A stretch of DNA of 28,424 nt from a virus. The DNA is taken from UHGV virus genome UHGV-0364842. One strand, given 5' to 3'. Shown here one piece after another: positions 3,731 to 28,424 of this stretch; position 1 is the stretch's first letter; each line of letters opens with the position of its first letter. Below the pieces are notes generated by a model. That model was not told where the DNA came from and ran no database searches. It saw nothing but the letters and a program-made list of their open reading frames with translations. The position numbers were made by a program, and so were the translations under genes.

Positions 3731-3979
3731 AATAGCGGGTAAAATATTTCTCACATCTAAAAAATACCATTCCAATCAATCCCCTGCTGTCTCAAGTAGA
3801 TGTCTGCAGGGGACACCATTTATCAGTTCGCTCCCATCCGTACCAGTCCGCAAAATCCCCTGAATATCAAGCCTTCCGTAGATTCACGGTTCGTCATGGT
3901 TCGCGTCAGATCGTTGACAGCCGCACACCATGACGGGTAAAAAGTGGATAAAATAATTTTACCCACCGGATTTTTACCC
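3722..3979. other. candidate attP / integrase arm-site region (GGGTAAAA direct and inverted repeats)
   Basis: GGGTAAAAT at 3725-3733 and 3737-3745, GGGTAAAAA at 3935-3943, inverted TTTTACCC at 3957-3964 and 3972-3979; an 8-bp inverted repeat TCCCCTGC...GCAGGGGA lies between them. Confidence 0.3.
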
Positions 3980-5125
3980 ATGCTCACCGTTAAGCAGATT
4001 GAAGCAGCAAAGCCGAAAGAAAAACCATACCGCCTACTCGATGGTAATGGCCTGTACCTTTATGTCCCTGTGTCAGGGAAAAAGGTATGGCAGCTTCGCT
4101 ACAAGATTGACGGTAAGGAGAAAATCCTGACCGTAGGAAAATATCCGCTAATGACTTTGCAGGAAGCAAGAGATAAAGCATGGACCGCGAGGAAAGACAT
4201 CTCGGTTGGCATCGATCCGGTAAAAGCGAAAAAGGCTTCGTCTAACAACAATTCCTTTAGTGCGATTTACAAGGAATGGTACGAGCACAAGAAGCAAGTC
4301 TGGTCAGTAGGCTATGCAAATGAACTTGCAAAAATGTTTGATGACGACATTTTACCTATCATCGGCGGCCTTGAAATTCAGGATATTGAGCCGATGCAAC
4401 TGCTGGAAGTAATCCGCAGATTTGAAGATCGCGGTGCAATGGAGCGAGCAAATAAAGCCCGCAGAAGATGCGGCGAGGTTTTCCGTTACGCTATTGTCAC
4501 TGGTAGGGCTAAATATAACCCGGCACCTGACCTTGCTGACGCCATGAAGGGATACCGCAAGAAAAACTTCCCGTTTCTTCCTGCAGACCAGATCCCGGCA
4601 TTTAACAAAGCACTGGCAACATTTTCAGGAAGCATCGTATCGCTCATTGCGACCAAGGTTTTACGCTATACAGCCCTCAGAACAAAAGAGCTTCGTTCCA
4701 TGCTATGGAAGAACGTCGATTTTGAAAACAGGATTATCACCATCGACGCCAGTGTGATGAAGGGACGCAAAATTCATGTAGTTCCTATGTCAGACCAGGT
4801 AGTTGAACTTCTCACTACGCTAAGCTCAATCACCAAACCAGTATCAGAGTTTGTTTTTGCCGGGCGCAACGATAAGAAAAAGCCAATCTGCGAGAACGCG
4901 GTGCTACTTGTGATCAAACAAATCGGCTATGAGGGTCTGGAAAGCGGTCACGGATTCAGGCATGAATTCAGCACGATTATGAACGAGCACGAATGGCCTG
5001 CTGATGCTATTGAAGTGCAACTGGCACATGCCAACGGCGGATCTGTGCGCGGGATTTACAACCATGCTCAGTATCTCGATAAGCGCAGAGAAATGATGCA
5101 GTGGTGGGCTGATTGGTTAGGGTAG
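3980..5125 (+). CDS. int: tyrosine integrase, P4/IntA-like
   Basis: N-terminus MLTVKQIEAAKPKEKPYRLLDGNGLYLYV is typical of P4-type integrases; C-terminal catalytic region with the HxxR...Y pattern. An in-frame GTG at 3944 is an alternative start. Confidence 0.9.
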   Translation: MLTVKQIEAAKPKEKPYRLLDGNGLYLYVPVSGKKVWQLRYKIDGKEKILTVGKYPLMTLQEARDKAWTARKDISVGIDPVKAKKASSNNNSFSAIYKEWYEHKKQVWSVGYANELAKMFDDDILPIIGGLEIQDIEPMQLLEVIRRFEDRGAMERANKARRRCGEVFRYAIVTGRAKYNPAPDLADAMKGYRKKNFPFLPADQIPAFNKALATFSGSIVSLIATKVLRYTALRTKELRSMLWKNVDFENRIITIDASVMKGRKIHVVPMSDQVVELLTTLSSITKPVSEFVFAGRNDKKKPICENAVLLVIKQIGYEGLESGHGFRHEFSTIMNEHEWPADAIEVQLAHANGGSVRGIYNHAQYLDKRREMMQWWADWLG

Positions 5126-5214: not shown

Positions 5215-7593
5215 TTAAACAGTGTATCCAGAAAATACGTATCGCTGAGTAACTGATGCTTCTGCTTGTATCTCAATTCCAGTTGAGCTAACTACGCAGT
5301 TAACTTCAAAAGATGTTGCTGAACCGATATTCATCGCAAACGTTCCGTTATTAACTCCTGTAGTTTTAGTAACTTTCTCTCCTGTTGACTTAGTAAATTC
5401 GATCGTTGTTGCTGTTGAACTTTTTGATATCGTGAATTTTAAATTACGATCACCAGAATCGCCATTATTTATAATAATAAATCTATCTCCAGTAGCGATA
5501 TTAGTAGTGGTTGGTACCCCAACCCTAAATAATACAACTGGAGATGATGAAATTCCATCAAACCCAACACGCATAATACCAACTGAGTTCCATAAGTGAC
5601 CAAAGTCTAACTCTGTACCAGATAGTACATTCCCGGTGCATGTACACATATCTGATAACGTAGGGTTTGATGATGGATTAGTTATCCTGCATCTTGTTTT
5701 TGAATTAAACTTATTATCAGAAATGACAAGATTCATATTAGAATACCCATCATTGTTAGTGGTGTAATCAGTAAATACAGTAAGGTCGCCAAACATACCT
5801 TTGTTATTTGATATATTCAGTGTGCCAGTAAACCCGCCACCACCAGATTGACTACCTGTGTTCATTTGCACCAATCCAACTACTAACGCATCTGGCAGAT
5901 CGAAAATATTGTCCGTAACCGTAATCTGCTGACGCAAGTTGTACGGGTACAAAGAAACACGTACAAAGTTAGTGCTAGTATTAGCAGGTGAAGAGAAGTG
6001 ACAGCCGGATATAACTACGTTAGTTAGAGGTGTGCCATTCGCAACGTAGTTAAGAGTAATTAGCTCGATATCACAGTTATGAATATGCACGAACCTATTA
6101 CCATACACCAACGGACCTACTGTTGGTGATCCTACCCAATCGCGTGTTTCTGCGAACAGGAATGTACCCTTGGAGTTGGCAAGTGTAATGTCCGGGAATA
6201 GCTCCTGCATGACACTGACGTAGTTACGGCGGTAGAACCAGCGCTTGTTAGTGCTACTGTACTGATAGGCCTCTTTGATTTTATGCGGCACCATAAGGCA
6301 GGAGTTCCAGCCAATGCAGTCTTCGATAGTGATATCACTCTCTTGAACAAGGTGCGCTTTATTGTAAATGTCGTACATTTCTAGAGTAGCATTAGATCTG
6401 CATTTAACTCCTTTTTGATATCCTTTGTAATGGCTAAGTGACCAGCAAGACACTAACGCCATTGCTGTATATCCGTTAGAACCATCTGCCCAAAAATCGT
6501 CATCATTATCAATAGAGTAGTCATGTATTGAAACGTTCTTCATAGCATGGCGAATTTGTTTTTCGTAGATATTTTCGTTAACACTACCTATTTGTATAAA
6601 TGTGCCAGCCATATTATGAACTGTGAAATTTGAAATATCTATTGTCTCGTGAGGGAAGTCTCGCGTAAGAAGAATGAAATCGTAAGGACTCTCAGCGTGA
6701 AAATGCGTTAATGAAATGCTATCGCAACCATAGCTTACTTCATCTGGATTTATATTTAATGGGCCGATCGCAGTAAATATTTCAACCCGACCAGTTGTAT
6801 AGAATTTAGATGCTTTTATGGATTTTATTTTTGTTATTGATCCATCAACCACACCAACCAGCCTTGGCCTGATAGATGAAATTTCGCTGCCATGGACAAT
6901 GAAATCTTCACCATAGAAATACCCATTTGTTTTTAAATAAAAGTTATAACCGTTACCTGGGTATATATCCCCACCCCCCCAAATATTAAGGAAAGATACT
7001 GAAATATTCATATCATCAGGAAGATATACGGATTTACCCATTAGATTTAGATTGACACCGCCAAACAAAGACTCCATCTCTTCAAGAGCGGTTTTGTTTA
7101 AAGACGCTGATAGCGGTGCATTATAAACGCCACCAAATGCGGATATGTCACCGTTCATCCATGATAAATACTTATCAAGTGATGCGTTAGATACATTTTC
7201 ACCTGAATGATGAATATATGATGTCCCATTTGGTTCAACCAGTCTTTGAGCCAACTGATCAGGGTCGTATTTCAGCACATTCGGAAAATAGAACTGCTGT
7301 GCACCATACGCATCATAAACAGCCATAGAATGGCCTTGCACGGTAACGAATTTGGCAATCTGTCCGTTATATACCGGATATCCGGCAGCGTTAATGATGA
7401 TTGGTTGCGAAACAGGAACGTGAGAACCGTCTTCGTTCTCCACATAAACCTGAATCTGGTTTTCAGGATTTACCGGGTCAGTGTCAATTTTACCGATATA
7501 AATTTTTCCATTGGCTACGGCTTTAAAAGAACGCGCCATAGTGAAGAGTTGCGAAGGCATGCTTACCACAACATTGGCTGTAATGTCTGTCAT
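5215..7593 (-). CDS. tailspike protein: P22 gp9-like head-binding domain with a divergent receptor-binding domain
   Basis: The first ~115 aa closely match the recalled P22 tailspike N-terminus ([11 protein letters not shown]...VLKYDPDQ); the remaining ~680 aa are unrelated to the P22 endorhamnosidase domain. Confidence 0.9.
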
Positions 7594-7693: not shown

Positions 7694-8617
7694 TCAGTAG
7701 CTATGTACTGAAGGAGGTAATTCTTTATTCTTAAGTCTCATCCATGCGGAAAGATTCGTTGGTCCGTCTGGCTCATTGATATCAACATCTCGTGTGTGAT
7801 TGATTAAAACGTCCCTCGCCATTCCGATAACATACGAGAACTCATGACCGTAGTCGTAGCATCTGCCGGAATAATTCGATTGAATTTGTTTTAGCGCCGG
7901 ATACAGTTCGCGGAATAATGCCTGTGAGCGGTTGGCATAATCCCATAACCATACAAGGCTGTTTGCTTCTTTTGCAGAAAGCTCGTTGGTTTTCTTCTCT
8001 TGTTTGCCAATGAACTCACCTTCAAGCGGAACGCGAGCAGCAAGTGACAGTGCTTCGGTAAACTGCTCCTCACTGATTTCTTTGTACGAACATCCAAAAT
8101 GGGATTTCAGTGACGACCACATGGTGATCATCGCCTTAGCCTGTTTTTCTTTTGGCAGAGACTGACCGCGACTCATGACGAGTTGTTTAATGGCTTCCTG
8201 CTGTTCAGTGGTGATTTTACCCGGCAACGCTTTTTTAGCTTTGCGTGGGTTAACTACATGGCCTTTAGTCCAGTACTCGTATAGCACATCGTCACACTCT
8301 TCTTGATACTGGATTACATTGTCGCGGATTTCAGGGCGGACTTTGTTAGGGCTGATGGTTTGCAACCAGCCATTCAGTTTACGTAAAGCAAGGCAAATCA
8401 TGGTCTGCACACCGCCAACTGAAGGTATTGCGATTTCCACAATACCTTTAGCAAATCTTTGTTTTAACTTTGTAAACTGTGAAGCCCAATCCATACCCAT
8501 TCCCTCAACGATAGGTTTCATTGGGGTGTACGGCTCACCGTTGTGATTGACAACATAAAGCTCTGCGCCGTGGAATGGTACATTGATAGTAGATACTGCT
8601 GTTGCTATACTTTTCAT
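7694..8617 (-). CDS. ant: antirepressor Ant
   Basis: 307 aa; N-terminus [23 protein letters not shown] matches P22-type Ant/BRO-N antirepressors; sits downstream of arc. Confidence 0.8.
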
Positions 8618-8680
8618 GTCGTTAATTCCTATGCGTGGTTTTACGATATCGAAGCCCTGACTGTTCCCGCAGTTGGGGCT

Positions 8681-8863
8681 TCACTGTTTTATGTTCACAT
8701 CTAACATTGTTTTTCTAGAATTTAACTCTTTCCCCATCGCTTCAACGCAAAGAGATACACAACCACTACAGATAAATATCTCTGCTTTAGCGCGAATCAA
8801 CATTGCACATTCATGCTGAGGCTTTCCGCAGAAGGAGCACTTAAAGCCATCTTCTTTATTCAT
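8681..8863 (-). CDS. ClpX N-terminal zinc-binding-domain-like mini-protein
   Basis: 60 aa; CSFCGKPQHE...LI...FICSGCVSLC matches the ClpX N-domain signature (CSFCGKSQHEV...YICDECVDLC in E. coli ClpX, from memory). Start overlaps the arc stop. Confidence 0.6.
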   Translation of the reverse strand: MNKEDGFKCSFCGKPQHECAMLIRAKAEIFICSGCVSLCVEAMGKELNSRKTMLDVNIKQ

Positions 8864-9126: not shown

Positions 9127-9375
9127 ATGGCAAAGGGTGTGTCAATTTCTCCAACTACGGTAAGAATCCCTGAATCTTTACGCGAGGCTCTTGCTGTTAG
9201 AGCATCAAAAAATGGTCGCTCTGTTAACTCCGAGATCGTCATGATTTTGCAAGCCGCGATTGATGAAGATAGGTCGCCAAAGTCAGTTGAGTCATTTGCT
9301 CAGCAAGAAGCTGACAAATTCAAAGAGGCGCTGCTGGAGACGCTGAAAACCATGTATGGTAAGGATGATAAATAA
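9127..9375 (+). CDS. mnt: Mnt-like repressor (Arc/MetJ family)
   Basis: 82 aa; NGRSVNSEIVMILQAAI resembles the P22 Mnt N-terminal ribbon-helix-helix domain; divergent from arc. Confidence 0.8.
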   Translation: MAKGVSISPTTVRIPESLREALAVRASKNGRSVNSEIVMILQAAIDEDRSPKSVESFAQQEADKFKEALLETLKTMYGKDDK

Positions 9376-9911
9376 TGCTGCACACAATTCATTTCTTATG
9401 CCCCGTTAACACCGCCACTGTTGGGCAACTTCAGAACCACTGTCTCACCGCATTATCTCAAGGCGCAACTGAATTAAATATCCATATATCAAGTCAGGGA
9501 GGGGAAACTGCCGCTGGTTTTACTGCGTATAACTTTCTTAAGTCACTCCCTGTTACCGTTAGAACTCACAACATAAGCAATGTTGAATCCATAGCTAATA
9601 TCGTTTTCCTGGCTGGCTCAGAACGTTTCGCAAACCCATTATCAAGATTCCTGTTACATCCTCTATTATGGGGCTTTGCCACCCCAGCCGCCGACCATGC
9701 CAGACTGAGAGAGTACGGGAAATGCCTCGATAACGATCTTGATCGCTTCGTTGAGACGTTCAATATCGACATCGGAACCCATATTAGGTGGGCATCCCTG
9801 ATAGCAGACTCGACCATTTTGGATGCTAACAAGGCTCTTGAGCATGGCATAATTAATTCCATAAAAACTGCAAGGCTGGCATCCAATCAGGCAAACTGGT
9901 GGGTTGTTTGA
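9375..9911 (+). CDS. ClpP-family serine protease-like protein, N-terminally truncated relative to ClpP
   Basis: 178 aa; aligns with the ClpP core by eye: ISSQGG vs INSPGG; Ser in NVESIAN vs GQAASMG; His in LLHPL vs MIHQP; Asp in ADSTILD vs ERDRFLS; ALEHGIINSI vs AVEYGLVDSI. Start overlaps the mnt stop (TAATG). Confidence 0.6.
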   Translation: MLHTIHFLCPVNTATVGQLQNHCLTALSQGATELNIHISSQGGETAAGFTAYNFLKSLPVTVRTHNISNVESIANIVFLAGSERFANPLSRFLLHPLLWGFATPAADHARLREYGKCLDNDLDRFVETFNIDIGTHIRWASLIADSTILDANKALEHGIINSIKTARLASNQANWWVV

Positions 9912-9967: not shown

Positions 9968-10387
9968 TTAATCTTGCTTCGTGGAAGGTATAAGAGATGC
10001 ATTTGCCTCTTTTGGCTTCAATGTATACATCCCACCATTAAATGGATCAACAGCAAGCCAACCAATTAACCCACCAAACACAAGGTTTCCACCAATATAC
10101 CAACCATTAGCATTGGCTTTGATTGGCAGGGTAACTGGTTCGTACCCATCCTTCTCCATAGTGATCTGGTAGCTCTTTTTGCCAAAATAGCTACCATCTG
10201 ACTTGGCGAGTGTTACACCTTGTGGAGTCTTACCTTGCGCAACAATCACACCCGATTCATCTTTTACCTTAAAGCTCGCGCCAGAAGGATTGCTGTTCAC
10301 TTGCACAAGTTGCGTTTCATCACCAACAATAGTTGCGCACCCAGATAACATGATAACGCCAGCAACGACGCTAATAATCCTCTTCAT
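9968..10387 (-). CDS. lipoprotein with PEGA-like domain (candidate moron / superinfection exclusion)
   Basis: Signal peptide MKRIISVVAGVIMLSGC with an LSGC lipobox; PEGA-like segment (SNPSGASFKV...GKTPQGVTL...KDGYEPVT). An alternative start at 10399 is possible. Confidence 0.6.
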   Translation of the reverse strand: MKRIISVVAGVIMLSGCATIVGDETQLVQVNSNPSGASFKVKDESGVIVAQGKTPQGVTLAKSDGSYFGKKSYQITMEKDGYEPVTLPIKANANGWYIGGNLVFGGLIGWLAVDPFNGGMYTLKPKEANASLIPSTKQD

Positions 10388-10504
10388 ATCAATTTCCATA
10401 TTTAAAAAACCGGAAACATCCTAATGACAAAACATTCAAATGTGAAGTAGGCAAAAGATGTTTACTTTTTTCATGGTATCCTGCTCAAAACTAAGGAGGT
10501 TGGT

Positions 10505-25981: not shown

Positions 25982-26220
25982 ATCAACCTCGTCTAGTTGT
26001 TCGTCATAGATTCAGTGGCTGGCGGTGACGATTCCGCTTTTCGGGAGCTACCCTAGCCACTGTTTTATTCTATCCGATGTCTTTCCATCAGTCCGCCACC
26101 ACAAAGAATCTTTTTTGCCATAAGGCAGGGGGTTCATCTTTCAGTGGCTGCCAGTGTTATTTCCCCACTTACTGGCTTGGGTTGTTTCGTGGTACTGCTG
26201 TTAATTAGTGAGTCCGGGGA

Positions 26221-26706
26221 TTATTTCAGTTCGTTACCAGGCATTTCTTTTAGCTCTTTCAAATGACAACGATTGAGACTAAACCACTCCCCGTGCGACC
26301 TATAGTTGTAATATTTTTGGTGCAATTTGGTTTCAAGCTCTCTATCGGCCGGAATCTTTGCAATTAGATTTAGCTTCCCACCACTCATGCGAGATATCTC
26401 TGAAATTCGTTTATTAACCCTGCGACTAAACCCTATTTTTGTTAGCCCACTATCTTCAGCATGCAGAACGTACACATATGATTTTTGCGAAGCACTGGGT
26501 GCGACTTTGTTGTAATTAATCATGTCAAACATGAAGCCTTGCTTTAGCAAAGTTTCAAAAAAGATAGAATTAACACACCCATTCCTTCTCAGCTCTGCAC
26601 TTAGCTTGTCAATTTCCTCTATGATGTCGCCAGACCCCTTTCCACTTATAAGAAAATCTTGGTACATGCGACCAATTCTTGAGGTAATTTCAACAAAGTT
26701 ATTCAT
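26221..26706 (-). CDS. T5orf172 / GIY-YIG-like domain protein
   Basis: 161 aa; C-terminal half YVYVLHAEDSGLTKIGFSRRVNKRISEI...HGEWF fits the GIY-YIG/T5orf172 pattern; N-terminal ~65 aa unassigned; AT-rich. Confidence 0.6.
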   Translation of the reverse strand: MNNFVEITSRIGRMYQDFLISGKGSGDIIEEIDKLSAELRRNGCVNSIFFETLLKQGFMFDMINYNKVAPSASQKSYVYVLHAEDSGLTKIGFSRRVNKRISEISRMSGGKLNLIAKIPADRELETKLHQKYYNYRSHGEWFSLNRCHLKELKEMPGNELK

Positions 26707-26846: not shown

Positions 26847-26873
26847 ATAAAAAAGCCCCGCAAATGCGAGGCT
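26847..26873 (-). terminator. rho-independent terminator, minus strand
   Basis: Minus strand reads AGCCTCGC-attt-GCGGGGCT followed by TTTTTTATA: an 8-bp stem including one G-U pair. Confidence 0.55.
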
Positions 26874-27047
26874 AAATCCTGGTATTTGTAATGAACTGGC
26901 TCTTATCTCAACGCAGCCCCTTACTGCGCGCCAGATGCTCAATATCAAGCATCAGCAATGAGATGTTTAATCTGGATTCACTCCAGAAGTGATCATCACC
27001 CTGTCTATAGAGCCAGATGTGAAGGATGATGAGTAAAATTATCGCTA

Positions 27048-27515
27048 TCATCGAAGGCATTGCGTCTTGATATATTCCTGAAGCGTTCTCAGTGCTGTTT
27101 GGTCGCGGATAATTCCGTCCCGGACACCGAGAACGTTTCGTCCAGCAACTGGAGAGAGTTCGACGGTGGCATCATTGCCCATGCCGGAGGCGCCGGAGGT
27201 TTCGGCTGAGGATGGCACAGGGCATTTTCCTTTGACGAGCACCCTGCCACCATTATCAAGATTGCGCCGAAGAGCATCATTTTCAGCTTTCGCATCAGCT
27301 AACTCCTTCGTGTATTTAGCATCGAGTGCATCAGCAGCACGCTGGCGTTGCTGCATGTCAGTAATGGTGGAGGTCGCCTGCTTCAGCTCAATGACTTTTT
27401 TATCACGCTGTTCTTTGTAGGCGATGGCGTTATCACGGTAATGATTAACAGCCCATGACAGGCAGACGATGATGCAGATAACCAGAGCGGAGATAATCGC
27501 GGTTACTCTGCTCAT
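27048..27515 (-). CDS. Rz: i-spanin Rz
   Basis: N-terminus [31 protein letters not shown] matches lambda Rz from memory; the C-terminal part diverges. Confidence 0.85.
27089..27295 (-). CDS. Rz1: o-spanin Rz1, embedded in Rz in an alternate frame
   Basis: Lipoprotein signal with a VAGC lipobox, then a proline-rich segment ([11 protein letters not shown]); fully nested within Rz. Confidence 0.7.
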
Positions 27516-27988
27516 ACCTCAATCTCTCTGACCGTTCCGCCTGCTTCTTTGAATTTTGCAATCAGGCTGTCAGCCTTATGCTCGAACTGACCATAACCAG
27601 CACCCGGCAGTGAAGCCCAGATATTGCTGCAACGGTCGATTGCCTGACGGATATCACCGCGATCAATCATCGGTAAAGCGCCACGCTCCTTAATCTGCTG
27701 CAGCGCAACAGCGTCCTGGCTTTTGGGAGAGAAGTCTTTCAGGCCAAGCTGCTTGCGGTAGGCATCCCACCAACGGGAAAGAAGCTGGTAACGTCCGGCT
27801 GCTGTTGATTTGAGTTTGGGGTTTAGCGTGACAAGTTTGCGAGGGTGATCGGAGTAATCAGTGAATAGCTCTCCGCCAACAATGACGTCATAACCATGAT
27901 TTCTGGTTTTCTGACGTCCGTTATCAGTTCCCTCTGACCACGCCAGCATATCGAGGAACGCCTTACGTTGATTATTGATTTCCACCAT
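27512..27988 (-). CDS. R: endolysin, lambda R-type lytic transglycosylase
   Basis: 158 aa; essentially identical to the recalled lambda R sequence ([35 protein letters not shown]...). Confidence 0.9.
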
Positions 27989-28295
27989 CTTCTACTCCGG
28001 CTTTTTTAGCAGCGAAGCGTTTGATAAGCGAACCAATCGAGTCAGTACCGATGTAGCCGATGAACACGCTCGTTATATAAGCGAGATTGCTACTTAGTCC
28101 GGCAAAGTCGAGAAGGTCACGAATGAACCAGGCGATAATGGCGCACATCGTTGCGTCGATTACTGTTTTTGTAAACGCACCGCCATTATATCTGCCGCGA
28201 AGGTACGCCATTGCAAACGCAAGGATTGCCCCGATGCCTTGTTCCTTTGCCGCGAGAATGGCGGCTAACAGGTCATGTTTTTCTGGCATCTTCAT
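27972..28295 (-). CDS. S: holin, lambda S-type (S107/S105 dual start)
   Basis: 107 aa; near-identical to recalled lambda S, including the MKM dual-start motif. Confidence 0.9.
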
Positions 28296-28424
28296 GTCTT
28301 ACCCCCAATAAGGGGATTTGCTCTATTTAATTAGGAATAAGGTCGATTACTGATAGAACAAATCCAGGCTACTGTGTTTAGTAATCAGATTTGTTCGTGA
28401 CCGATATGCACGGGCAAAACGGCA
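28296..28424 (-). promoter_or_regulatory. lambda-type late-operon leader upstream of S (promoter itself probably beyond the window)
   Basis: The reverse complement matches the recalled lambda sequence immediately upstream of S, including the AAGACATGAAGATG S-start region. Confidence 0.4.

Follow-up and report, generated by a model that had tools for sequence, protein, structure and literature searches.

Kongari et al. (2018; PMC6139136) assigned 83 i-spanins, including those of lambda, P22, HK620, SE1 and Sf6, to one lambda Rz family, and most of the partner o-spanins to three families, represented by HK97 (32 members), lambda (28) and HK620 (14); the HK97 family contains the o-spanins of P22, Sf6 and CUS-3, and the HK620 family those of SE1, SPN9CC and mEp460. 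Separate lambda, HK97 and HK620 o-spanin families accompanying one Rz family are thus already known, and they are the same three-type pattern as that seen in the phages compared here. Salmonella P22-like phages carry three holin types and three lysin types, and the same paper, on epsilon34, reports in a P22-like phage a Q protein 98% identical to lambda Q (PMC2629481). The occurrence of lambda-type S and R genes in P22-like phages is likewise known already, as is a boundary sequence within Rz, annotated in the Sf6 record. A boundary-sequence model of mosaic joints is presented in PMC3029335, in a passage that cites Clark et al. 2001 (the HK620 paper) and Susskind and Botstein 1978.

We analysed a viral DNA stretch of 28,424 nt (UHGV-0364842, the whole of which is called the window below), the 5' end of the minus strand of which carries lysis genes. 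This region very probably forms the lysis end of the late operon in a temperate P22-like phage (Lederbergvirus type), equipped with a mosaic four-gene cassette of the lambda family. The mosaic joint in it is real, can be mapped precisely and is already known.

Lysis genes and their setting in a P22-like genome

Positions 27048-28424 are a coding region on the minus strand, in which the open reading frame list contains four lysis genes, S, R, Rz and Rz1. The original prediction had placed a lambda-like cassette on a P22-like backbone here without naming a strand; the cassette is indeed present, and its strand is the minus one. All four frames are open, neither frameshifts nor stop codons being seen when looked for, and all four products match PHROG lysis families. 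An Rfam search gave no match within the cassette, and a promoter scan found sites no more numerous than in shuffled sequence.

The leader upstream of S (28296..28424, minus strand) is truncated by the window end; it includes the S ribosome-binding region and, further upstream, the stem-loop region described in lambda. All of its 129 nt are identical to lambda 45057-45185, and nucleotide identity to lambda continues without a break from 129 nt upstream of the S start into the coding sequence. The leader is diverged in HK620 and P22, and its part 28424-28305 is 118/120 identical in Salmonella phage SE1, the holin of which is non-homologous. S (27972..28295, minus strand; 107 aa) is a lambda-family class I holin/antiholin with 320/324 nt and 106/107 amino acids identical to lambda S. 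It scores 127.3 bits against the TIGR01594 holin_lambda equivalog model (cut-off 55), matches PF05106 (Phage_holin_3_1) at E = 2.4e-30 and shares 89.6% amino acid identity with P22 gp13. The dual start M-K-M (MKMPEK) is intact, with S107 beginning at 28295 and S105 at Met3 (28289). Given its 99% identity to lambda S, the protein would be expected to act as a timed former of membrane holes (holin activity).

R (27512..27988, minus strand; 158 aa), the start of which overlaps the end of S, is a lambda-type endolysin (lytic transglycosylase), 459/477 nt and 156/158 amino acids being identical to lambda R. As no Pfam or NCBIfam model matched R at E <= 0.01, its membership rests on direct comparison with lambda and with the solved lambda lysozyme structures (PDB 1AM7, E = 2.6e-105 over residues 1-158; 3D3D, E = 3e-103), together with the match to the phrog_90 endolysin family. 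The catalytic Glu19 of lambda R, read from the sequence (AWSEGTD), is kept. The predicted near-identity of S, R and the leader to lambda is thereby borne out.

Rz (27048..27515, minus strand; 155 aa), an i-spanin whose N-terminal transmembrane segment precedes a periplasmic domain, overlaps the R stop and matches PF03245 (E = 3e-28) and phrog_13 (E = 3.9e-73). Rz1 (27089..27295, minus strand; 68 aa), an o-spanin lipoprotein, is fully embedded in Rz in the +1 frame; it matches PF06085 at E = 3.9e-21 and, with residues 1-67, the 68-position phrog_3198 profile. Its lipobox VAGC with Cys19, a Ser at +2 and a proline-rich mature part can be read from the sequence. The functions proposed for S, R and Rz/Rz1 derive from how nearly these proteins equal those of lambda. 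Made from the two starts, the S105 holin and S107 antiholin would set the timing of the inner-membrane hole; R would pass through this hole and cut the peptidoglycan; and Rz in the inner membrane would form, with the outer-membrane lipoprotein Rz1, the spanin that disrupts the outer membrane.

The start of a 50-aa open reading frame with a hydrophobic N-terminus (26908..27060, minus strand) overlaps the Rz end. It matches phrog_11822, a family of unknown function, at E = 9.8e-36 and is the equivalent of Sf6 gene 65 and Kapi1_042; its region (27044-26895) has 93-100% nucleotide identity to Sf6, HK620 and Kapi1, and it accompanies the cassette in phages of the HK620, Sf6 and Kapi1 types. Downstream of the lysis genes a consensus scan found a terminator-like hairpin (26854..26873, minus strand) with 8 pairs, 6 of them G-C, followed by the T run TTTTTAT and weakly similar to the P22 stretch after gene 15.

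Elsewhere the window has the character of a P22-like phage, as had been predicted: packaging and virion genes of P22 type stand in P22 order. The window encodes a gp3 small terminase (GP3_package), a large terminase (Terminase_6N/6C), a P22-type portal and scaffold (P22_portal, Phage-scaffold), a tailspike with the P22 Head_binding domain and an Ant antirepressor with P22_AR_N/C domains, sar RNA adjoining ant. The packaging genes 3 and 2 are 92-96% identical to P22 at the nucleotide level, and the best whole-window matches are the Lederbergvirus phages IME10, Dewey and APC_JM3.2. Complete E. coli genomes contained no identical match over the full length, the closest one covering 93% at 95.6% identity. 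The predicted absence of the P22 gene 19 lysozyme holds for the window, a tblastn search with gp19 returning nothing better than E = 0.15.

Since the window includes no more than 129 nt ahead of S, knowledge of Q and pR' comes solely from an identical contig, a metagenome assembly of 38,570 bp (L008). A search for exact copies of the Rz protein retrieved this contig; it equals window 28424-21048 (7377 nt) at 100% identity and reaches 5.1 kb further upstream. Its upstream gene order is ninB, ninE, ybcO, rusA, ninH, Q. Homology to lambda begins within a few bases of the Q ATG and runs through pR', the pause region, qut, tR' and the leader into S; the Q-tR' part, outside the window, aligns to lambda 43875-44800 with scattered substitutions only, and the sole interruption, near lambda 44805-44845, consists of about 35 replaced nucleotides with an 8-nt deletion. 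A lambda-type Q and late promoter, suggested as a check on the exchange, are therefore found upstream on this contig, yet P22 gene 23 and its late promoter are themselves about 96-98% identical to this Q/pR' stretch, so that Q marks no exchange away from P22. Relative to P22, the differing stretch starts after the promoter region and stops inside Rz.

The mosaic structure of Rz and Rz1

Window 28424-27268 aligns to lambda 45057-46213 as a single ungapped blastn match of 95.7% identity, and its part 28424-27435 (990 nt) is 97.8% identical. Within Rz the identity changes in steps. Nucleotides 1-81 (codons 1-27; 27515-27435) are identical to lambda in 80/81 positions (98.8%); nucleotides 82-201 (codons 28-67; 27434-27315, minus strand), a variable patch, in 94/120 (78%); nucleotides 202-248 (codons 68-83; 27314-27268) in 45/47 (96%); and nucleotides 249-468 (27267-27048) in 73/220 without gaps, that is 33%, which is the chance level, nucleotide homology to lambda not being detectable after Rz nt 248. 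At the amino acid level residues 1-31, which include the hydrophobic segment, are 31/31 identical to lambda, residues 32-62 18/31, residues 63-83 21/21 and residues 84-155 25/73. The corresponding values are 31/31, 22/31, 21/21 and 65/72 for HK620 and 30/31, 29/31, 21/21 and 69/72 for Kapi1. The nucleotide identity of the variable patch is 118/120 in Kapi1, 116/120 in phiv205-1, 102/120 in HK620 and 84/120 in SE1; its 78% identity to lambda could reflect either older divergence or a third donor.

The position of the distal joint follows from informative sites in a codon alignment of the window, lambda and SE1. Before the switch, the final site of lambda type falls at Rz nt 234, and from nt 246 a run of SE1-type sites follows; this places the crossover at window 27281-27271 (minus strand), that is in Rz codons 79-82 and Rz1 codons 5-9, just inside the Rz1 signal peptide. 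The original prediction had Rz following lambda for its first ~30 residues and diverging thereafter, with one breakpoint within Rz/Rz1. The identical residues 1-31 and the existence of a sharp joint agree with it, but residues 63-83 are again fully identical, the joint sits at codons 79-82 and not at about residue 30, and Rz shows at least three transitions instead of one, the transition near residue 30 being the start of an internal patch that is still homologous. Uniform moderate divergence from lambda, named beforehand as the outcome that would speak against an exchange, is not what the cassette displays: identity is stepwise across it (33-100%), and the abrupt drop in Rz is neither chance nor uniform divergence.

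The joints lie beside short conserved stretches. An island at Rz nt 61-90 (27426..27455, minus strand; 11 encoded residues), just before the variable patch, has 97-100% pairwise nucleotide identity among lambda, SE1 and P22, and the stretch 27314-27285 around the Rz1 start is 24-30/30 identical in every phage of the panel. The GenBank record of Sf6 carries the label 'bsq7; boundary sequence' at Rz nt 70-117, equivalent to window 27446-27399; this coincides with the first Rz transition and overlaps the conserved island.

Beyond the crossover the spanin pair changes type. The Rz1 ATG at 27295 is homologous to the lambda Rz1 ATG at 46186, and the whole Rz1 has 66/68 residues in common with its HK620 counterpart but no more than 27/70 with that of lambda; the P22 and Sf6 Rz1 proteins are clearly unlike it. 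Salmonella SE1, SPN9CC and S149 and E. coli HK620, Kapi1 and mEp460 match the distal 216 nt of Rz at 94-97% identity; P22 and lambda have no nucleotide match there. Distal Rz nevertheless keeps both cysteines and the C-terminal QC motif common with lambda. The HK620 record describes its Rz as 'similar to Rz protein of Bacteriophage PS119'. Judged from these identities, distal Rz and mature Rz1 are of the known HK620/SE1 (PS119) type, neither lambda- nor P22-type, and Rz1 can be placed in the HK620 o-spanin family as defined by Kongari et al. (2018), by its identity to known Rz1 proteins rather than by a repetition of their clustering procedure. An identification of the distal part with P22 gene 15/Rz1, by which lambda and P22 would have met at the joint, was rejected, since no nucleotide match to P22 reaches past window 27286 and its Rz shows only 26/73 identity over residues 84-155, the donor type being HK620/SE1; gene 15 and Rz1 of P22 are a third type, common to Sf6.

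Distribution and origin of the joint

Over the whole 1725-nt query, identity is 98.1% in phiv205-1, 96.7% in APC_JM3.2, 95.1% in HK620 and 94.7% in JEP4, and in Kapi1 it is 97.5% over window 28424-26847, which makes up the first 91% of that query. Sf6, CUS-3, Sf101, epsilon34 and g341c have the S-R part and the downstream part in common with the window and carry the other distal Rz type. The 201 nt across the joint (27380-27180), counted as a match at 80% coverage or more, are found in 66 phage records, including the siphoviruses mEp460 and Oslo, and in 1715 of 5426 complete E. coli genomes. This distribution indicates that the joint is old and widespread. From the viewpoint of an HK620-type Rz no joint exists, and it is lambda that carries another distal type. 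Such a cassette is the normal condition in a large group of P22-like phages of E. coli and Shigella that has long been known, and with cassette and joint so widespread a direction of transfer from lambda cannot be inferred.

A recent, single graft of lambda's own lysis module onto the P22 backbone, confined to this phage, would explain the 97.8% identity to lambda over 990 nt, the fully identical leader and a lambda homology that starts exactly at the Q ATG of the identical contig. It is nonetheless highly improbable: phiv205-1, APC_JM3.2, HK620 and Kapi1 are as close or closer and remain so beyond the point where the similarity to lambda breaks, the joint recurs in the phage records and E. 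coli genomes counted above, the Q/pR' stretch is common to P22, and the identity table points to S-R nesting among P22-like phages and not next to lambda. The modular exchange with a lambdoid phage in the original prediction stands in so far as S and R are of lambda type and not P22 13/19, and falls as regards a graft special to this phage. That the joint is a chimera made in the assembly of a metagenome scaffold may be given a negligible probability. The sole contig with the exact Rz protein is such a scaffold, but the same arrangement exists in the isolated phages HK620, Kapi1, phiv205-1 and APC_JM3.2 and in complete E. coli chromosomes, and this occurrence excludes an assembly artefact.

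We also considered divergence in place, without any recombination, in which the C-terminal half of Rz and Rz1 would have evolved fast and the N-terminal half under constraint. The distal halves are distantly homologous as proteins (the 25/73 identity to lambda, the cysteines and the QC motif), and overlapping reading frames may distort evolutionary rates. There is very little chance that this is the explanation. Nucleotide identity to lambda is 96-100% in the proximal part, with very few differences even at synonymous sites, and drops to the chance level over some 15 nt. The distal segment itself recurs with 94-97% identity in Salmonella phages, among them SE1, where the holin and endolysin joined to it are non-homologous and exchange is thus required. 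The SE1 arrangement likewise means that the distal spanin segment occurs with different holin/endolysin sets.

We propose, in place of these readings, that the cassette is a mosaic drawn from a shared lambdoid gene pool, with crossovers beside conserved islands. The stretch from Q (on the source contig) through Rz codon 82 is its lambda-like part, the variable patch of codons 28-67 excepted, and the last 72 Rz codons with nearly all of Rz1 past the first signal-peptide codons are its part of HK620/SE1 spanin type. Joints that lie beside stretches conserved in all types would fit homologous recombination at boundary sequences of this conserved kind; illegitimate recombination with subsequent selection would also be compatible with the sequence.

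In lambda, the C-terminal part of Rz and mature Rz1 are reported to be in mutual contact. With a crossover only a few codons into Rz1, the C-terminal domain of Rz (72 residues) is passed on jointly with the whole of mature Rz1. This co-inheritance may be adaptive; Rz and Rz1 must move together anyway because Rz1 is embedded in Rz. A further reading, which we regard as tentative and rather doubtful, is that Rz nt 61-90 and ~200-245 are recurrent recombination linkers, that the Rz C-terminus and mature Rz1 are swapped as a co-adapted pair, and that the placement of the crossover is selected. Were it true, such swaps would be independent of the Rz membrane anchor, the holin and the endolysin.

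The main value of these results lies in correct annotation, with little beyond it. The late operon is a clean instance of lambdoid mosaicism, uniting a lambda/P22-type Q, lambda-type S and R, an HK620-type spanin tail and a P22-type virion, and its breakpoint illustrates how an embedded gene pair can be exchanged without splitting interacting partners.

Comparison with described lysis regions

The lysis region of HK620 (NC_002730 16539-17786) belongs to a P22-like phage in which Q, S and R are of lambda type and Rz is 155 aa long, and it has 95.1% nucleotide identity over window 28403-26702, the close Rz1 match (66/68) and the downstream 50-aa reading frame region in common with the window. 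It differs in its diverged leader (~70-77% identity), in the Rz patch (102/120) and further downstream, where HK620 has a KilA-N gene and the window a T5orf172/MUG113 gene. The closest cassettes, with the same Rz patch type and the same joint, are those of phiv205-1 (MN340231) and vB_EcoP_Kapi1 (MT813197). phiv205-1 also has a lambda-type Q and pR' and differs by a downstream Rha gene and by being without the equivalent of lambda 44782-44944, whereas Kapi1 differs by phage 21-type tRNA genes between Q and S.

Lambda (NC_001416 43886-46427) is alike in S, R, Rz codons 1-82, the gene overlaps and the Rz1 start position and, on the identical contig, in Q, pR', qut, tR' and the leader. It differs in Rz codons 28-67 (78%) and, in another type, in Rz residues 84-155 and in Rz1 from about residue 9; unlike lambda, the window cassette has no bor gene downstream, and lambda is a siphovirus with another virion module. 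P22 has genes 13, 19, 15 and Rz1 at the same late-operon position, between gene 23 (Q) and the packaging genes, but its gene 19 encodes a T4-type lysozyme that is not homologous to R, and its gene 15/Rz1 is of the HK97/P22 type. The SE1/PS119-type cassette resembles the window in the 120 nt of leader ahead of the holin and in the spanin genes, with Rz residues 84-155 identical in 64/72, a nearly identical Rz1 and 94.4% identity over the distal 216 nt, and it differs in carrying a 67-aa holin and a 167-aa endolysin, annotated as PS119-like and without a nucleotide match to S or R.

Gene order and the immI-type region

The tyrosine integrase gene (3944-5125, plus strand) adjoins the tailspike gene (5215-7593, minus strand), with the early-left Ead/Ea22 and DUF551 genes located at 975-2446. 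This arrangement is the attP-intact gene order of a phage and not of a prophage, and it agrees with the reading of the 38.6-kb metagenome contig as a whole phage genome. A P22-type antirepressor gene (7694-8617, minus strand; P22_AR_N/C) directly adjoins a sar antisense RNA (8619-8685, plus strand; Rfam RF00262, 73.8 bits), and the two together form an intact region of the P22 immI type. The stretch between the ejection-protein genes and ant is a variable region housing a 178-aa ORF for a ClpP-like protease (9375-9911, plus strand; PF00574, E = 4e-12) and a 143-aa ORF (9968-10399, minus strand), whose PEGA-domain match is sub-threshold (17.5 bits vs a cut-off of 20.8). In phiv205-1 a similar "head maturation protease" is annotated in this region.

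Genes between the spanins and the packaging genes

The Rz stop is overlapped by an ORF of 50 aa whose N-terminus is hydrophobic (26908-27060, minus strand; phrog_11822); its counterparts are Sf6 gene 65 and Kapi1_042. Since its position directly 3' of the spanin genes is kept in several P22-like phages, this ORF may either have an accessory role in lysis or be a moron. Further on, between the lysis and packaging genes, lies a gene encoding a 161-aa protein of the T5orf172/MUG113 family (26221-26706, minus strand), annotated in E. coli genomes as a member of the GIY-YIG nuclease family. In relatives its place is taken by Rha or KilA-N genes, and the interval 26700-26200 has a nucleotide match in none of the seven panel phages compared. 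An int-alpA RNA motif (26001-26063, minus strand; Rfam RF02996, 42 bits vs a gathering score of 35.8) is intergenic, with the T5orf172 gene on one side and an 80-aa ORF on the other.

The late control region and the leader of S

Upstream of the window, in the overlapping metagenome contig L008, the Q/pR' region of this phage (positions 3919-4650) shares about 96-98% nucleotide identity with gene 23 and the late promoter of P22 (L003, 37186-37900), which are likewise about 96-98% identical to the lambda Q/pR' region. The P22 homology with the contig stops shortly past the late promoter. Between tR' and S, in the orf-64 region of lambda, contig positions 4848-4880 (outside the window) correspond to lambda 44805-44845 and carry a replacement of ~35 nt with an 8-nt deletion, in surroundings roughly 97% identical to lambda; in phiv205-1, lambda 44782-44944 is missing altogether. 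The S leader behaves as a conserved linker, and a mosaic boundary falls exactly at the holin start: 118 of 120 nt (28305-28424) are the same in Salmonella phage SE1 (L005), yet the SE1 holin and endolysin are, despite this shared leader, non-homologous to S and R.
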